Positions 463 through 43,225 of a stretch of 64,000 nucleotides of DNA are shown here, piece by piece. Numbering within the stretch: position 1 is the stretch's first letter; each line of letters begins with the position of its first letter. Both the position numbers and the translations under genes were made by a program. The notes beneath the pieces were generated by a model. That model had not been told where the DNA came from. It saw only the letters and a list, made by a program, of their open reading frames with translations, and did not search any database. This DNA comes from Escherichia phage vB_Eco_F27: the sequence record OP870146.1; one strand, written 5' to 3'.

Positions 463-861
463 TTATTTGTAGGTTTTCATCCAATTCTTGAACAAAGCCG
501 CGACGTCTTTCTCTTTAACGTTCAGTTTAATGTCCAACATTTTACCGCCCGCTGCTCTCGTTTGACGAATCTTAGCAGTACCGGTTTCACCATTCCACTC
601 AACATAATATTGCCCAGTGTTCATAGCGATACCGTTGCCAAAGTCTTCGTTATTAGAAGTAGTGAATGCCAACTTCATGGTCTTAGAGACACGGGCCGGC
701 ATGCCTGTCTGAAGGGCATTACGAACGCGAATAACCTGAGGAGTGGCCTGGGTCAGGTTCTCATTCAGTTCTTCGGTGAACTCTTCAGATTCAAACATCG
801 CCAAAAGTTCTTTAGATGCAGGAATTACATTCTCTGCGATAAATTCTTTATATGTTTTCAT
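463..861 (-). CDS. internal head protein-like (capsid-targeting-sequence N-terminus MKTYKEFIAE), 132 aa
   Basis: ORF track; ATG at 859-861 with AAGGAAAC SD; N-terminus matches the T4 IPIII capsid targeting sequence MKTYQEFIAE, which ends in an L/I-x-E prohead protease site. Confidence 0.5.
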   Translation of the reverse strand: MKTYKEFIAENVIPASKELLAMFESEEFTEELNENLTQATPQVIRVRNALQTGMPARVSKTMKLAFTTSNNEDFGNGIAMNTGQYYVEWNGETGTAKIRQTRAAGGKMLDIKLNVKEKDVAALFKNWMKTYK

Positions 862-925
862 TTTTTGTTTCCTTGTTTGTTTTGATAGAGTAATTATACC
901 ATATTAATACTTAAGCGTAAACCGT

Positions 926-1186
926 TTAAGCTTTACCGCCAGAAATAATTCCGAAGTTGTTAAAATCGTATCCAATATCGTCAACATCTACTTTAGGACT
1001 TACTACAACATAAGCAATTTCACTACGTTTTGCATAGGTGTTTATTTCTTTACCATCACCACCTAAGAAAGAATACCCATTACGTTTTAATGAGCCAAAG
1101 TCTTCCGCATCACCAATGAAAGCTTTAACTTTAAATTTAGGACCTTTGGCATCTGCTTCAACGATAAATTCTTGATACATTTTCAT
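926..1186 (-). CDS. internal head protein-like (N-terminus MKMYQEFIVE), 86 aa
   Basis: ORF track; ATG 1184-1186 with AAGGAAAA SD; CTS-like N-terminus. Confidence 0.5.
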   Translation of the reverse strand: MKMYQEFIVEADAKGPKFKVKAFIGDAEDFGSLKRNGYSFLGGDGKEINTYAKRSEIAYVVVSPKVDVDDIGYDFNNFGIISGGKA

Positions 1187-1192
1187 TTTTCC

Positions 1193-1390
1193 TTAGTAAA
1201 TTGATTTACCATAGTATTTGTACCAAGTCGGACGTTGAGCAATTTTTTCATCTAAGCGTGCTTGATTTATCGCAATGGACGCTTCGGACGGGTCATAATT
1301 TCCTCCAAGTAGTTGATGAATGTATAGTATCAAAACCCTTGGAGGAAGTAAACAACTATTTTTCTGAAGCGCCTGAAATATATTTTTCAA
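1193..1390 (-). pseudogene. denV: remnant of denV (endonuclease V, pyrimidine dimer glycosylase): C-terminal ~33 codons only
   Basis: Frame translates ...[33 protein letters not shown], matching the T4 DenV C-terminus ([34 protein letters not shown], from memory); no ATG in frame; stops at 1400-1405 upstream; N-terminal 100 codons absent. Confidence 0.5.
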
Positions 1391-1637
1391 GACGTTGTTT
1401 CATTAAAGAGCCGTTCTTAGCGATTTCTTCCGGTTTATCGCACATACGCAACAAGGCTTCGAGCTTAACGATATCGCTGGTACGTTCAAATTTGCGAGTA
1501 TCTATCTTACTAGCAAGTTCAGAAATACGTGCTAATAGACTTTCGGCTTCAACCAAAGCTGCACCTAGCTTAGTTGCAAATGTGTCAGTAGCTTCGTTAA
1601 GAATAGATTCTGATAAAAATTCACTATATGTTTTCAT
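1356..1637 (-). CDS. internal head protein-like (N-terminus [10 protein letters not shown]), 93 aa
   Basis: ORF track trimmed from TTG at 1652 to ATG at 1635-1637; CTS-like N-terminus; overlaps the denV remnant by 35 nt. Confidence 0.5.
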
Positions 1638-11776: not shown

Positions 11777-11983
11777 TTACTCACCTTTTGCAATTTTATC
11801 CATAACGATAGCGATTAAGCCGATTAGAAATGCTACTACCAATGAGATAGAGTTTTCAGTTGTTGTCAGTAGTCCACAAATGAATCCTACAAACATCGAA
11901 AAACTAAAAGCCATTGAAGCAATTACTACAGCAACATTACGAATCAGTTCAGCGCGTTTCATTTTATTTCTCCATTTACTCAT
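11777..11983 (-). CDS. small membrane protein, 68 aa
   Basis: ATG 11981-11983; early promoter upstream; two hydrophobic segments. Confidence 0.45.
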   Translation of the reverse strand: MSKWRNKMKRAELIRNVAVVIASMAFSFSMFVGFICGLLTTTENSISLVVAFLIGLIAIVMDKIAKGE

Positions 11984-11999
11984 TTGTTTTGATAGGACT

Positions 12000-12028
12000 A
12001 CTATAACATATCCCTATAGGCTTGTATA
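12000..12028 (-). promoter_or_regulatory. early promoter (-35 TATACA / -10 TATAGT)
   Basis: Cassette family, 17-bp spacer. Confidence 0.45.
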
Positions 12029-12031
12029 CCT

Positions 12032-12295
12032 TTATTTCAAATATATTGCGTATTTTTTATAGCCACCAGGCTCGTGTCGAAGACCTTTATCATTCGCAAA
12101 ACGTTGAATGTTATTGAACTGATTTTCATCAAGTTCGGATGTGTCAAATATGAAAAAGTTTCGTTTGTTGCCAAGCGTGATATGCGGAGTTAAGTCAATG
12201 TTATACAAATTAAGAATATCAGCAATAACCTGATTGACCGCTTTGTTAATTTTCACACCAGACGATTCTGAGATGAATTCGTTGAAAGTTTTCAT
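12032..12295 (-). CDS. internal head protein-like (N-terminus MKTFNEFISE), 87 aa
   Basis: ORF track trimmed to ATG 12293-12295; CTS-like N-terminus. Confidence 0.45.
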   Translation of the reverse strand: MKTFNEFISESSGVKINKAVNQVIADILNLYNIDLTPHITLGNKRNFFIFDTSELDENQFNNIQRFANDKGLRHEPGGYKKYAIYLK

Positions 12296-12327
12296 TTTAG
12301 GTTCCATTTGGTTGTTTTGATAGGACT

Positions 12328-12356
12328 ACTATAACATAATCCTATCGTGTTGTAAA
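12328..12356 (-). promoter_or_regulatory. early promoter (-35 TTTACA / -10 TATAGT)
   Basis: ATTTACAacacgataggattatgtTATAGT. Confidence 0.5.
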
Positions 12357-12668
12357 TTATTTTATGCCTTTAGAAGAAATGGTGTTTTGGCGTTTGGTCC
12401 CTGTTTGTGAAAAATCGTGGTTATCGATTTGGTCGACTCGCATAACACCAAATGCAGATTTAATTTTAGCCTTTGAACCTTTTTTGATACTAATTATCAT
12501 ATAAGTATCATTTTTCTTATATTCGAAATTTGTTACTTCAACGCCTTGATTAGAAATTGACTTAATAATAGCATTAGCGTATTCATCATCTAACGGACCG
12601 GTGGTGTTAATAATAAAATTTTTATCGGCTTTAGTAGCTTCAGCGATAAACTCTTGATAAGTTTTCAT
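12357..12668 (-). CDS. internal head protein (N-terminus MKTYQEFIAE, identical to the T4 capsid targeting sequence), in the ipI map position, 103 aa
   Basis: ORF track trimmed to ATG 12666-12668; adjacent to 57B as ipI is in T4. Confidence 0.6.
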   Translation of the reverse strand: MKTYQEFIAEATKADKNFIINTTGPLDDEYANAIIKSISNQGVEVTNFEYKKNDTYMIISIKKGSKAKIKSAFGVMRVDQIDNHDFSQTGTKRQNTISSKGIK

Positions 12669-12704
12669 TTGTTTTTTCCGTTTGGTTTGAGATTTGATAG
12701 GATG

Positions 12705-12733
12705 ATAGTAACACACCATCATCCTTATGTAAA
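12705..12733 (-). promoter_or_regulatory. early promoter (-35 TTTACA / -10 TACTAT)
   Basis: Arms AGGATGAT / ATCATCCT keep the inverted repeat around the -10 through different bases. Confidence 0.5.
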
Positions 12734-12747
12734 CTGTTTTGTGAAAA

Positions 12748-13433
<686 letters not shown>

Positions 13434-13437
13434 TTTA

Positions 13438-14172
13438 TTACCTTAAGATTGTTTCAATTTTAGAATAAAGCTCTTCTAAAGAGCCGTCGTTTGTAATAAC
13501 TAAATCGCCTTCTTCAATAGGCAACCCAGCTTCTGTAATATGTTTATCAGTGGATTCCGTACCAGAGCGAACCACATGAATAACTGTAGCACCCATCGCT
13601 CTAGCGGTTTCCATTTCATGGACTTGGCGTGTATCGGTTACAACATAGTAATCGAAATCACTTCCAATATAATCCATATAGTTTAATGCAAAAAGCTTAA
13701 CCCAATACATACGGTCAAATAAATTAACGACAACATCCGTACCGAGGGCTTGCATAAGACGGCGGATTGACCATGTGTCGTTGATATTATTTATAGCTTC
13801 ACGCAGGGCTTCATATGGTTTAATATCTAGATATGAATACCCACCTTCTAATGATGATAATACTTTAACATTATTAATTGGTAAATATTGACTTTGTAAA
13901 TAAATTAGCGCTTCTTCCAATAATTCAATAACATCCAACTTATTGATATTTAATGGTGTTTCACGGTCATATCCGACACCTTCAAAGTATTCGTATTTCA
14001 ACTCTGTGAATACATCAGGATCTTCAGCATGTTTACGTCCCCAGGCTATTGCTAGAGCGTCTTTAATCGGATATGCCAATTGGTATTTTACGGATTTAAA
14101 GTTTGAATTGATGTAATCAGCAGTAGTGTCTTTACCACTACGTTTGATGCCGCTTAAAAAGATTAGCTCCAT
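13438..14172 (-). CDS. 1: gp1 deoxynucleoside monophosphate kinase, 244 aa
   Basis: Translation MELIFLSGIKRSGKDTTADY... with P-loop; strong match to T4 gp1. Confidence 0.9.
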   Translation of the reverse strand: MELIFLSGIKRSGKDTTADYINSNFKSVKYQLAYPIKDALAIAWGRKHAEDPDVFTELKYEYFEGVGYDRETPLNINKLDVIELLEEALIYLQSQYLPINNVKVLSSLEGGYSYLDIKPYEALREAINNINDTWSIRRLMQALGTDVVVNLFDRMYWVKLFALNYMDYIGSDFDYYVVTDTRQVHEMETARAMGATVIHVVRSGTESTDKHITEAGLPIEEGDLVITNDGSLEELYSKIETILR

Positions 14173-41313: not shown

Positions 41314-41738
41314 TGTATCTTATCCCTGAATCTTATGAATTGGTACTCGAAAATGTCGAAGCACTTATTCCTGAAGCACAGGGCCGAATCGATGCATTGT
41401 CTTCTGCTCTCGATATTGACGATATAAATACTATTATCGAGAACATGCTTGAAACTGAAACGGATTTAGCTGTTGCAATGGCTTCCATTATTAATGAAGA
41501 ACAGTTAAATGAGTTTATCGTTAAACATGTTTCTTCTCGTGGTGAAGTCACCCGCACTAAAGACCGTAAAACTCGTGAACGTAACGCGTTCCAAACCACT
41601 GGTCTTTCTAAAGCAAAACGTAGACAAATCGCTCGTAAGGTCGTTAAAGCTAAAAAAGCTAACCCTTCAGGCCAAGTTAAAGGCTTGCGTAAGCGTAAAA
41701 AGGCTCTTAAACGTCGTAAAGCATTAGGATTAAGCTAA
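41313..41738 (+). CDS. 68: gp68 prohead core protein, 141 aa
   Basis: Position; basic C-terminus. Confidence 0.8.
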
Positions 41739-42379
41739 TGAATAAACCCGAGTTACTTATTGAAACTTGGGGTCAACCCGGTGAGATTATTGATGGCGTT
41801 CCAATGTTGGAATCTCATGATGGAAAAGATTCTGGCTTAAAACCAGGGCTTTATATAGAAGGTATTTTTCTTCAGGCAGAGGTTGTTAACCGAAATAAAC
41901 GTTTATATCCTAAACGCGTTTTGGAAAAAGCAGTAAGTGACTATATTAAAGAACAAGTCGCAACCAAACAAGCCCTTGGAGAATTAAACCATCCACCTCG
42001 TGCAAATGTTGACCCTATGCAAGCCGCTATCATTATTGAAGATATGTGGTGGAAAGGAAACGATGTATATGGACGTGCTAGAATTATTGAAGGCGACCAT
42101 GGTCCCGGTGATAAATTAGCTGCTAATATACGAGCTGGTTGGATTCCAGGTGTTTCCTCTCGTGGTCTTGGTTCTTTAACCGACACCAATAAAGGGTACC
42201 GTATCGTGAACGAAGGATTTAAATTAACCGTCGGCGTAGATGCCGTATGGGGACCTTCTGCTCCAGATGCTTGGGTTACTCCTAAACAAATATCAGAATC
42301 AGAAAATTCGGTGGAAATCACCAAAAACAGTGCTGACGAAGCATTTAAAGCTCTCGCAGAGAGTTTAAAAGCATTATAA
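41738..42379 (+). CDS. 21: gp21 prohead core protein and protease, 213 aa
   Basis: Length and order. Confidence 0.9.
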   Translation: MNKPELLIETWGQPGEIIDGVPMLESHDGKDSGLKPGLYIEGIFLQAEVVNRNKRLYPKRVLEKAVSDYIKEQVATKQALGELNHPPRANVDPMQAAIIIEDMWWKGNDVYGRARIIEGDHGPGDKLAANIRAGWIPGVSSRGLGSLTDTNKGYRIVNEGFKLTVGVDAVWGPSAPDAWVTPKQISESENSVEITKNSADEAFKALAESLKAL

Positions 42380-42412: not shown

Positions 42413-43225
42413 ATGATCAAAGAACAACTTTTGAAAGAAGCTCAGAATATCGAGACTTCAGTTGCTCTTAATAGTGTTTTCGAATCAGTAGAACTGTCTC
42501 CGGACGTTAAAGCTAATTTCAGCACTGTATTCGAAGCCACCGTTAAGCAGGAAGCAGTCAAACTGGCTGAATCTCATATCAAAGCCATCGCCGAAAAGGC
42601 CGAAGAAGAAGTTGAAAAGGCTAAAGAAGATGCTGAAGAGAAAGCTGATAAAAAATTGGCTGAACAAGCTTCTAAATTCCTAGACCATCTTGCAAAAGAA
42701 TGGCTCGCAGAAAACCAAATCGCAGTTGATAAAGGCATTAAAGCTGATTTGTTCGAATCCATGCTTGGTGGTCTGAAAGAACTGTTTGTTGAACATAACG
42801 TTGTTGTTCCAGAAGAATCTGTAGATGTTGTAGCAGAAATGGAAGAAGAGCTGGCCGAACATAAAGAAGAAACCGCTCGTTTGTTCGAAGAAGTTACCAA
42901 ACGTGATGCATATATCAATTACGTTCAGCGTGAAACCGCTATTAATGAAAGCGTAAAAGACCTGACTGAATCTCAGAAAGAAAAAGTTATTGGCCTGGTT
43001 GAAGGTATGGATTATTCTGACGCATTTGGTACTAAGTTAACTGCTATTGTAGAAATGGTTAAAGGTTCTACTAAAGAAGAAGCCGCTATTACCGAAAGTA
43101 TAAATACAGTTGACAATGACGCTGCCGGTCTTAATTTTGTTGCCGAAGCAGTTGACACTACCACAACTCAGGTAGAACAGAATTCTAATGTAAGTTTATA
43201 TGCGAAAGTCGCATCTCGTTTCTAA
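42413..43225 (+). CDS. 22: gp22 prohead core scaffold protein, 270 aa
   Basis: Acidic coiled-coil; length as T4 gp22. Confidence 0.9.
   Translation: MIKEQLLKEAQNIETSVALNSVFESVELSPDVKANFSTVFEATVKQEAVKLAESHIKAIAEKAEEEVEKAKEDAEEKADKKLAEQASKFLDHLAKEWLAENQIAVDKGIKADLFESMLGGLKELFVEHNVVVPEESVDVVAEMEEELAEHKEETARLFEEVTKRDAYINYVQRETAINESVKDLTESQKEKVIGLVEGMDYSDAFGTKLTAIVEMVKGSTKEEAAITESINTVDNDAAGLNFVAEAVDTTTTQVEQNSNVSLYAKVASRF

Follow-up and report, generated by a model that had tools for sequence, protein, structure and literature searches.

Two leader-bearing gene cassettes of the Ip7 and Ip9 internal-protein families at the ipI locus of an RB69-like phage

What are the two small open reading frames that lie between genes 57B and tRNA.4 of Escherichia phage vB_Eco_F27, each consisting of a similar ten-residue leader and an unrelated cargo, and what might their products do? 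The window, i.e. the whole 64,000-nt stretch of DNA analysed here (record OP870146.1), comes from a Mosigvirus (RB69-like) genome of the T-even type, in which both reading frames occupy the minus strand. A preliminary description had reported them, without giving the strand, as a pair of internal-protein (IP) genes; both coding sequences exist as described, and their starts match those annotated in phage mogra, a close relative like AV118, with a locus that is 98.3% identical (CDSs of 312 nt and 264 nt). The genes, their flanks and the second IP locus are as follows.

12357–12668, minus strand: Ip7-family internal protein gene (ORF 12668→12357, 103-aa precursor; PHROG 2667)
12032–12295, minus strand: Ip9-family internal protein gene (ORF 12295→12032, 87-aa precursor; PHROG 7673)
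12748–13203, minus strand: 57B (Acb1 anti-CBASS phosphodiesterase family), the conserved left flank (Pfam PF23474 Acb1, E 1.3e-58; T4/RB69 synteny)
11777–11962, minus strand: tRNA.4 homolog, a 61-aa small membrane protein, the conserved right flank (PHROG 1692)
463–1637, minus strand: second IP locus (three genes with a leader, located downstream of lysozyme e: 1356–1637, 926–1186 and 463–861)

The gene order 57A-57B-(IP genes)-tRNA.4-tRNA.3-tRNA.2-tRNAs is common to this phage, T4 and RB69, and the synteny bears out the proposed position next to 57B at the ipI locus. The 57B-tRNA.4 interval is one of two hyperplastic IP loci; at the other, e-denV, the supposed pair of leader-bearing genes is actually a trio. 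We conclude that the two reading frames are very probably independent T-even internal protein cassettes of the named families Ip7 and Ip9 that occupy the ipI locus of this RB69-like phage and whose products would be packaged in the head and injected.

The family assignment of Ip7 follows from its match to PHROG 2667 ('internal head protein'), which extends over the full length of the precursor (residues 1–103, E 2e-38). The gene is the ortholog of mogra_128 ('internal head protein 7') and of RB69 ORF156c, to which it is 95% identical at the nucleotide level and from which it shows no difference of substance, ORF156c being 5 residues longer because TAT stands at the position of the stop codon TAA. 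Full-length homology extends to the other family members, including the 'Ip7 protein' of vB_EclM_AS6, with amino-acid identities of 60–70% to members from Tequatrovirus, Karamvirus and Moonvirus and of 63–70% to named Ip7 proteins, a UniProt 'Ip7 protein' being among the matches; altogether, matches were found in 156 GenBank phage records. An exhaustive HMMER search of the family against 1.84 billion representatives returned four matches at E<=0.001, three of which are Ip7-related phage proteins (two with a capsid-targeting sequence, CTS, and one an Ip7::Ip9 fusion from OLB35). The fourth, a 664-aa repeat protein, was considered spurious. Ip9 matches PHROG 7673 with an E-value of 7e-49, is 71% identical to UniProt Q38376 ('Ip9' of RB15) and corresponds to mogra_129 ('Ip9 putative internal head protein'), with matches in 181 GenBank phage records. 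Across this family identity is 71–77% over the whole cargo, with the same length class and the same locus, while the Mosigvirus allele differs in its leader (MKTFNEFISE) and in a linker 3 residues shorter than in the MKTYQEFIxE...NE(E/K)VKI form. The two genes occur as a pair in about 26 GenBank phages.

That the reading frames might be chance frames or decaying pseudogenes in a hypervariable intergenic spacer would suit their small size, the AT-rich DNA and the dispensability of the locus, which is empty in two of the loci compared below (L004 and L005). The conservation pattern effectively refutes this reading, whose probability we regard as negligible: full-length homologs with 60–77% identity occur in several genera without frameshifts, dN/dS lies well below 1 (0.10–0.22 for Ip7 against its orthologs, about 0.09 for Ip9), and a promoter, a Shine-Dalgarno sequence and an ATG stand in register for each gene. 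The AF2 models are confident as well, comprising for Ip7 (pLDDT 76) a ferredoxin-like beta-alpha-beta-beta-alpha-beta core followed by a disordered, conserved basic tail, and for Ip9 (pLDDT 84) an alpha/beta sandwich behind a disordered leader.

How the two genes would be expressed was addressed by a promoter scan and by folding of the intergenic regions, which gave the following elements.

12705–12733, minus strand: Ip7 early-type promoter, TTTACA-17 nt-(TGT)TACTAT (promoter scan; alignable with the elements between 57B and the IP gene in T4 and RB69)
12699–12725, minus strand: hairpin over the -10 of the Ip7 promoter (MFE -15.4 kcal/mol, z -4.55, 0/200 shuffles as stable)
12328–12356, minus strand: Ip9 early-type promoter, TTTACA-17 nt-(TGT)TATAGT, abutting the Ip7 stop codon (promoter scan)
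12319–12346, minus strand: hairpin over the -10 of the Ip9 promoter (MFE -14.3 kcal/mol, z -5.25, 0/200 shuffles as stable)
11984–12028, minus strand: third promoter element, TATACA-17-TATAGT, upstream of tRNA.4 (promoter match 12028–12000; direct repeat D1)

Both genes are thus preceded by a TTTACA-17-TGT-TA(C/T)(T/A)(A/G)T early-type promoter, and the scan returned exactly the two intervals to which the preliminary description had assigned an early promoter for each gene. The arrangement resembles the UP/-35/TGn/-10 architecture of T4 early promoters (PMC2988021) and would place transcription early in infection. In DNA as AT-rich as this, simple sigma-70 matches turn up often (18 found, 11.5 expected), so that the real support comes from the intergenic position of the elements and from the way in which they align with their T4 and RB69 homologs. 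The third element and that of the Ip9 promoter form a 43-nt direct repeat with 88% identity (D1, 11984–12026/12312–12354); the hairpin of the third element is degraded (z -0.27). The stems of the hairpins are AT-rich (AGGATGAT/ATCATCCT and GATAGGA/TCCTATC), and equivalent hairpins with other stem sequences are present in T4, RB69 and the panel loci. Longer starts for the two reading frames (ATG at 12722 and 12307) were rejected; they fall inside the promoter spacer or the 5' UTR and are unused in related annotations. A late promoter motif (TATAAATA) was sought within the locus and none was found, the nearest on the same strand lying at 13788–13795, inside gene 1. Head assembly is a late process, yet the locus carries early-type promoters only; T4 ipI is arranged alike and its product is nevertheless packaged.

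For comparison, a panel of 37 loci downstream of 57B was analysed. Of 49 distinct upstream regions, 27 combine a TTTACA-16/17-TAnnnT promoter and a hairpin (mean z -4.6, stems differing), while the remaining 22 had no promoter match, so that own promoters are not universal; many of the promoterless genes start at or a few bases from the stop codon of the preceding gene. The 37 loci hold 53 leader-bearing genes from 15 unrelated cargo families, with 0–3 genes per locus in varying order, as illustrated by Ip7-Ip9 here and Ip9-Ip7 in another panel member (L023), and some cargo families are common to both IP loci. Alignment of the locus across T4-like genomes confirmed that the cargo varies between phages and the leader does not. 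The breakpoints are sharp: relative to RB69, Ip9 stands in place of ipI exactly from leader codon 4 to the next promoter hairpin, and identity to RB69 resumes at the third promoter element (11984–12028), which marks the right-hand recombination boundary of the Ip9 cassette. In one of the phages without an IP gene (L004), 57B is 99% identical and a hybrid promoter element is present. Modular exchange of cargo behind a fixed leader, as had been suggested, is therefore supported. Each cassette consists of a strong sigma-70 early-type promoter with its -10 in a hairpin, a weak Shine-Dalgarno sequence, the 10-residue CTS and a small, basic cargo of unrelated sequence. In the mechanism that we propose, short patches of homology would be provided by the repeated promoter/hairpin elements and by the conserved DNA of the leader, allowing insertion, deletion or exchange of cassettes among phages as well as from one IP locus to the other.

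This layout of shared leader, variable cargo and own promoter is real, but it was described in 1994. According to later papers (PMC2839356, PMC12373910, PMC9026906), Repoila et al. 1994 reported a shared leader and variable cargo at the T-even IP loci. Both genes had already been named Ip7 and Ip9, and the novelty implied earlier does not hold. The interpretation is correct and ordinary, being textbook T-even biology (Repoila 1994; Black lab), and as a discovery it adds little, since recombinogenic promoter elements together with a conserved CTS are the classic description of an IP locus and the genes are present in dozens of GenBank genomes.

Whether the products would reach the capsid depends on the leaders and on the assembly proteins encoded in the window.

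12639–12668, minus strand: Ip7 leader MKTYQEFIAE, predicted gp21 cleavage after Glu10 (I-A-E/A), identical to T4 IPII/IPIII residues 1–10
12266–12295, minus strand: Ip9 leader MKTFNEFISE, predicted cleavage I-S-E/S, with Phe4 also in T4 IPI
41738–42379, plus strand: gp21 prohead protease, which would be expected to cleave off the leaders (Pfam Peptidase_S77, E 2.9e-107)
42413–43225, plus strand: gp22 scaffolding core protein, the target structure of CTS leaders (Pfam T4_CASP, E 1.5e-89)

The Ip7 leader had been presented as the exact T4 capsid-targeting sequence, which is true of IPII and IPIII but not of IPI, the protein encoded at this locus in T4, which begins MKTFKEFTSTTTPVSTITE. In a six-frame translation of the window, the pattern MK[TSM][YF]xEF[ILM]xE occurs five times, always at an N-terminus and always within one of the two minus-strand IP loci, with no occurrence in 300 shuffles. 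According to PMC9026906, citing Mullaney & Black 1996, targeting of IPIII depends on residues 4 and 7 and its processing on residues 8 and 10; both leaders have the corresponding determinants, i.e. an aromatic residue 4 and Phe7 for targeting and Ile/Leu8 and Glu10 for processing. Across the panel the leader is conserved at the peptide level, with synonymous variation at conserved residues, free positions 5 and 9 and a near-invariant Glu10, and residue 11 is Ala, Ser or Thr in 43 of 45 leaders.

An alternative would be that the shared N-terminus is no targeting signal, its DNA and the promoter being kept as a recombination and translation-initiation module in front of early cytoplasmic, unpackaged proteins. 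The exclusively early-type promoters, the swap breakpoint inside the leader DNA and the fact that the Ip9 cargo works without a leader in other phages (see below) would agree with this. We consider it very unlikely, as conservation of the leader is seen in the peptide and agrees with the residues that experiments have assigned to targeting and processing (PMC9026906), as gp21 and gp22 are encoded in the same 64,000-nt stretch, and as the same first 10 residues suffice to package foreign proteins in T4 (PMC3012670, PMC9026906). The packaging reading is preferred: in the prohead under assembly, the precursor leader would bind the gp22 scaffolding core, gp21 would cut after Glu10 (I-x-E/A or I-x-E/S), and the mature proteins of 93 aa (Ip7, predicted pI 9.5) and 77 aa (Ip9, predicted pI 9.0) would stay in the head with the DNA, be injected alongside it and act prior to any phage gene expression. 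Ip9 carries a second L-x-E site (LDE, residues 55–57), a possible further gp21 cut.

With regard to the cargo itself, the earlier statement that the two mature sequences lack similarity is essentially right. A 42-aa stretch of the mature parts gave a BLASTP E-value of 7e-4 (shuffle p about 0.001); distant homology was nevertheless rejected as not robust, with a family-profile hhalign E of 0.075 and p of 0.15–0.5 for other Ip7 members. Neither cargo gave a meaningful match to Pfam, NCBIfam or PDB sequences, no specific fold match was found, and a sequence or fold relationship to IPI* is absent. Both domains are phage-restricted, and the suggested check for conserved housekeeping proteins came out negative. 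The basic mature proteins might, as a second alternative, be packaged but generic, i.e. basic counter-ions, or proteins that condense DNA and assist its ejection, without a specific host target, in which case cargo diversity would reflect weak constraint and not an arms race. Their pI of 9.0–9.5, in which they resemble the T4 IPs, the lysine- and arginine-rich disordered tail of Ip7 and the missing fold match would be in line with such a role, as would the contacts of T4 internal protein lysines with DNA phosphates in the head (PMC3012670). We regard it as unlikely, given that the cargo is under purifying selection across genera (dN/dS 0.09–0.22), that it folds into defined compact domains in the AF2 models, that all three T4 IPs have specific targets (PMC12373910), and that the Ip9 domain is kept in phages without CTS packaging, which argues for an intrinsic activity.

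This last observation is the one modest new point of the analysis. In Kagunavirus and Seuratvirus siphophages the Ip9 cargo is found as a leaderless stand-alone protein of 72–74 aa (for instance the Kagunavirus homolog WWY66496 of UTEC10), and these homologs start exactly at the start of the T-even cargo, from which it follows that Ip9 activity needs no capsid delivery, a point against the packaging reading. In Ackermannviridae, which have a protease of the gp21 type, the domain makes up the last ~75 residues of a 755-aa protein (pertopsoe_86) that begins with the loosely CTS-like sequence MAIPSFLNFLEES. We tentatively propose, at somewhat less than even confidence, that the Ip9 cargo did not originate in T-even phages but is a widespread small phage effector domain that was turned into a pre-made injected protein by a capsid-targeting leader. 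If all forms share a host target, they would provide a natural series for comparing the benefit of pre-packaging with that of early expression, and the target could easily be found in a simple siphophage system.

Internal proteins have been described as diverse defence proteins with only the CTS in common (PMC3012670). Ip1, Ip2 and Ip3 are the only ones with known targets, each inhibiting a distinct restriction enzyme of the GmrSD type (PMC12373910). A literature search on the function, phenotype or virion proteomics of Ip7 and Ip9 found nothing relevant. Specific inhibition of host DNA-targeting defences would be the likeliest role for specifically acting, injected Ip7 and Ip9, and type IV GmrSD-like restriction enzymes may serve as a first guess for their targets by analogy with Ip1–3. 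RB69-like phages have arabinosyl-hmC DNA (PMC6024577), and the injected proteins may thus counter defences that recognise this modification; RB69 is restricted by an enzyme of UTI89. The practical value of the two families lies in their being widespread, well-conserved and uncharacterised members of the Ip1–3 delivery system. Moreover, as the IP locus adjoins the anti-CBASS gene Acb1 (57B), it is part of a compact counter-defence neighbourhood that helps host-range prediction for therapeutic phages.

Among known systems, the closest are T4 IPI (Ip1), IPII (Ip2) and IPIII (Ip3), which share with Ip7 and Ip9 the same two loci (57B-tRNA.4 and e-denV), the leader (that of IPII/IPIII in Ip7, an IPI-like Phe4 in Ip9), the I-x-E cleavage motif, small basic mature proteins, an early promoter of their own whose -10 lies within a hairpin, and a dependence on gp21 and gp22 that is predicted for Ip7 and Ip9. 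In contrast, neither mature sequence is related to a T4 IP, and the IPI propeptide has 19 residues, whereas Ip7 and Ip9 have the 10-residue type. A second parallel is offered by the PeSL (promoter-early stem-loop) cassettes of RB49 and phi1 (Arbiol et al. 2010, PMC2839356), in which, as here, an intergenic sigma-70-type promoter with a stem-loop flanks small accessory genes and provides homology for the excision, insertion and replacement of expression-ready cassettes. A PeSL-type layout with three elements (12699–12733, 12319–12356 and 11984–12028) is present in our locus, two of the hairpins being significant and the third degraded. IP-locus elements are considered analogs and not homologs of PeSLs, being T4 early promoter-based with weaker AT-rich stems and no G/C tracts (PMC2839356), and sequence homology to the GGGG...CCCC stems of the RB49/phi1 PeSLs is absent from the elements described here. 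A second homology patch of the IP cassettes, the leader, is part of the gene itself and has no counterpart in PeSL cassettes. Finally, the T4 ADP-ribosyltransferase Alt is likewise a non-structural effector that is brought into the prohead by an N-terminal propeptide, processed by gp21 and injected (PMC9026906, PMC2988021), but it is a large enzyme whose gene lies in another part of the genome, outside the shuffling loci.

The window is part of an RB69-like T-even phage of the genus Mosigvirus, and nine GenBank phages, including AV118, G2469 and mogra, were 98.1–98.5% identical to the 1.6-kb stretch around two internal-protein (IP) genes; at least 80% of this stretch was covered in 31 of 176 matching records. 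The two genes, CDS-A and CDS-B, follow 57B:

12748–13203, minus strand: 57B, Acb1 anti-CBASS phosphodiesterase family (Pfam PF23474, E 1.3e-58)
12668→12357, minus strand: CDS-A (Ip7), 103 aa, starting MKTYQEFIAE
12295→12032, minus strand: CDS-B (Ip9), 87 aa, starting MKTFNEFISE

The order gp3, gp1 (dNMP kinase), 57A, 57B, CDS-A, CDS-B, tRNA.4, tRNA.3, tRNA.2, tRNA-Met, tRNA-Arg, all on the minus strand, is the same in T4 and RB69, where ipI lies between 57B and tRNA.4, and this synteny bears out the placement of the pair next to 57B at the ipI locus in the preliminary description. 57B, for which 'RNA ligase' and 'hypothetical' are common annotations, clearly belongs to the Acb1 family, and the IP cassettes therefore directly adjoin another counter-defence gene.

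The start codons originally proposed agree with the annotation of phage mogra, while longer mechanical ORFs were rejected because their starts fall within the promoter or 5' UTR. The full length of CDS-A matched PHROG 2667 ('internal head protein', E 2e-38), and CDS-B matched PHROG 7673 (E 7e-49); their mogra counterparts are annotated as 'internal head protein 7' and 'Ip9 putative internal head protein', respectively. RB69 ORF156c is the ortholog of CDS-A, and UniProt Q38376 ('Ip9', phage RB15) shares 71% identity with CDS-B. Searches of GenBank phage records by tblastn with the mature parts matched 156 records for Ip7 and 181 for Ip9, 26 in each case at an identity of at least 90–95%, and dN/dS values of 0.09–0.22 in both cargo regions reflect purifying selection. 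The existence of both genes is thus confirmed. Sequence comparisons revealed no convincing relationship between the two cargos, in agreement with the dissimilarity first described, or between either cargo and the T4 IPs.

The Ip7 leader is identical to residues 1–10 of T4 IPII and IPIII, so that its description as the exact T4 capsid-targeting sequence holds for these two proteins but not for T4 IPI, which starts MKTFKEFTSTTTPVSTITE. Six-frame translation of the window yielded five copies of the leader motif, versus none in 300 shuffles. The conserved leader residues are encoded by several synonymous codons, and positions 5 and 9 vary freely; of 45 distinct leaders, 40 have Glu10 and 43 have Ala, Ser or Thr as residue 11. 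The leader is conserved at the peptide level and not only as DNA.

Alignment of the locus across T4-like genomes, as initially proposed, covered 37 loci (33 IMG/VR loci encoding a 57B relative, T4, RB69, mogra and the window) and revealed 53 leader-bearing ORFs downstream of 57B, with 15 cargo families behind the common leader and no similarity detectable between these families. Each locus holds zero to three leader-bearing genes in varying order (Ip7-Ip9 in the window, Ip9-Ip7 in L023). Two metagenomic Mosigvirus loci, L004 (3456–3530) and L005, whose 57B is 99% identical to that of the window, carry no leader-bearing gene downstream of it. In L004, tRNA.4 directly follows 57B and the single promoter element left is a hybrid between the left and right elements of the window, as would be expected for the remnant of an excision by recombination between flanking elements. 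Compared with RB69, the window is nearly identical through the Ip7 end, the promoter and ATGGAACCTAAAATGAAAAC, diverges from leader codon 4 and regains identity at TATGTTATAGTAGTCCTATCAAAAC of the next promoter; these breakpoints imply that Ip9 took the place of ipI as a cassette whose limits are the leader and the hairpin of the next promoter. The locus comparison and the RB69 alignment thus support the interpretation of modular cargo swapping behind a fixed leader.

A promoter scan located three elements:

12733–12705, minus strand: Ip7 promoter, TTTACA-17-TACTAT, TG before the -10
12356–12328, minus strand: Ip9 promoter, TTTACA-17-TATAGT, TG before the -10
12028–12000, minus strand: third copy ahead of tRNA.4, TATACA-17-TATAGT

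Plain sigma-70 matches are common in this AT-rich DNA (18 versus 11.5 expected), and the stronger argument is the alignment, column by column, of all nine intergenic elements from the window, RB69, T4 and one 'empty' relative, comprising the stop codon, TTTCACAAA, GTTTACA, spacer, TGT-TAnnnT, TATCAAAACAA, Shine-Dalgarno sequence and ATG. T4 early promoters have this UP/-35/TGn/-10 architecture (PMC2988021). Scan and alignment together corroborate a near-consensus early-type promoter ahead of each gene. The -10 hexamer is enclosed by a hairpin in the Ip7 (−15.4 kcal/mol, z −4.6) and Ip9 (−14.3 kcal/mol, z −5.3) promoters, while the hairpin of the third element is degraded (z −0.3). The promoter-hairpin element was present in 27 of 49 distinct upstream regions (mean z −4.6) with differing stem sequences, pointing to maintenance of the stem as such. 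The remaining 22 regions lacked a promoter match, many of these genes starting on the stop codon of the gene before or only a few bases from it; a promoter for each gene is therefore a feature of T4- and RB69-like phages, but not a universal one. The only T4 late-promoter motif (TATAAATA) near the locus on this strand lies at 13788–13795 (minus) inside gene 1, upstream of 57A, and late IP synthesis, if any, may come from read-through from this site or from continued early-promoter activity.

Downstream of lysozyme e (1634–2134) lies the window's other IP locus, which was implied to hold two genes; instead, three leader-bearing genes were found at 463–1637 on the minus strand:

1356–1637, minus strand: leader-bearing gene
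926–1186, minus strand: leader-bearing gene, MKMYQEFIVE, 86 aa
463–861, minus strand: leader-bearing gene, MKTYKEFIAE

Two of its cargo families sit at the 57B locus elsewhere (E 1e-24 and 2e-16), and cassettes therefore move between the two loci. In some T4-like genomes, leader-bearing ORFs also occur outside the 57B-tRNA.4 interval (L009:5809–6282, L020:5360–5626, L034:2533–2769), about 2 kb further downstream or, in L034, upstream of 57B, and IP genes may not be strictly confined to two loci.

AlphaFold2 predicted a compact domain after a disordered leader for both proteins, an alpha/beta sandwich for Ip9 (pLDDT 84) and a ferredoxin-like core followed by a disordered basic tail for Ip7 (pLDDT 76 overall, >90 in the core). 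The Ip7 tail (window 12360–12440, residues 77–103, RVDQIDNHDFxQTGxKRQNTIxxxGIK) is predicted to be disordered from residue 84 (pLDDT <50), yet no part of the family is better conserved between genera, which suggests a binding motif that may fold on its target or on DNA. In RB69, TAT (within L002:2440–2452) replaces the Ip7 stop codon TAA of the window (12357–12359), so that ORF156c runs five codons on (YFTTR) into the next promoter. The 77-aa 'ip7 protein' of Escherichia phage OLB35 (P0023) is a leaderless in-frame fusion of the Ip7 middle (residues ~29–81) with the C-terminal 32 residues of Ip9, presumably derived through deletion across the adjacent genes.

In T4, ten N-terminal IPIII residues suffice for the packaging of foreign proteins; targeting depends on residues 4 and 7, and processing on residues 8 and 10 (PMC9026906, PMC3012670). 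Ip7 and Ip9 both carry the required residues and a predicted I-x-E↓A/S site, and genes for the gp21 prohead protease (Peptidase_S77, E 2.9e-107) and for the scaffolding core protein gp22 are both present in the window. The precursors would be targeted to the prohead core, gp21 would remove the leader, and the basic mature proteins (Ip7, 93 aa, pI 9.5; Ip9, 77 aa, pI 9.0) would remain in the head until their injection together with the DNA. T4 Ip1, Ip2 and Ip3 are inhibitors of GmrSD-type restriction enzymes, each with a different target (PMC12373910), and RB69 DNA, which contains arabinosyl-hmC, is attacked by enzymes of this type (PMC6024577). By analogy, an anti-defence role of Ip7 and Ip9 is likely, and type IV restriction would be the single most likely class of target, at a probability we place just short of even.

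Ip9 cargo homologs were found by tblastn and profile searches as stand-alone proteins of 72–74 aa in siphophages of the genera Kagunavirus (UTEC10, L037:2504–2722, 57% identity) and Seuratvirus (KS_A3, L038:2492–2716), proteins P0026–P0043 among them, with many clusters on contigs of ~42–45 kb. These homologs are leaderless, their first residue coinciding with the T-even cargo start and PHROG 7673 matching only from profile position 19–20, which directly identifies the leader as an add-on module. The label 'internal head protein' of the KS_A3 homolog is probably a mis-transferred name. In Ackermannviridae, a 755-aa protein ends in an Ip9-like domain of ~75 residues (L039:467–2734, Kuttervirus pertopsoe_86; L040:1–2734, phage YX22), and these phages encode a gp21 homolog (39% identity, E 6e-23). 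This 755-aa protein, possibly a large packaged one, is encoded beside 'putative structural proteins' and has the N-terminus MAIPSFLNFLEES, a loose fit to the capsid-targeting pattern [YF]xxF[IL]xE. The Ip7 family is tiny and nearly all leader-bearing, with four matches at E ≤ 0.001 among 1.84 billion representatives in an exhaustive search, one being a repeat protein judged spurious.

The names Ip7 and Ip9 derive from the series of Repoila et al. 1994, whose abstract reportedly presents ten new ORFs sharing a conserved 11-residue leader, with homologous blocks on the 5' and 3' sides that could mediate shuffling. PMC2839356 credits the textbook picture of the IP locus to Repoila et al., and PMC12373910 and PMC9026906 agree. 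The Ip7/Ip9 cassette finding is thus correct but already known, and our modest addition is that the Ip9 cargo reaches beyond T-even phages.
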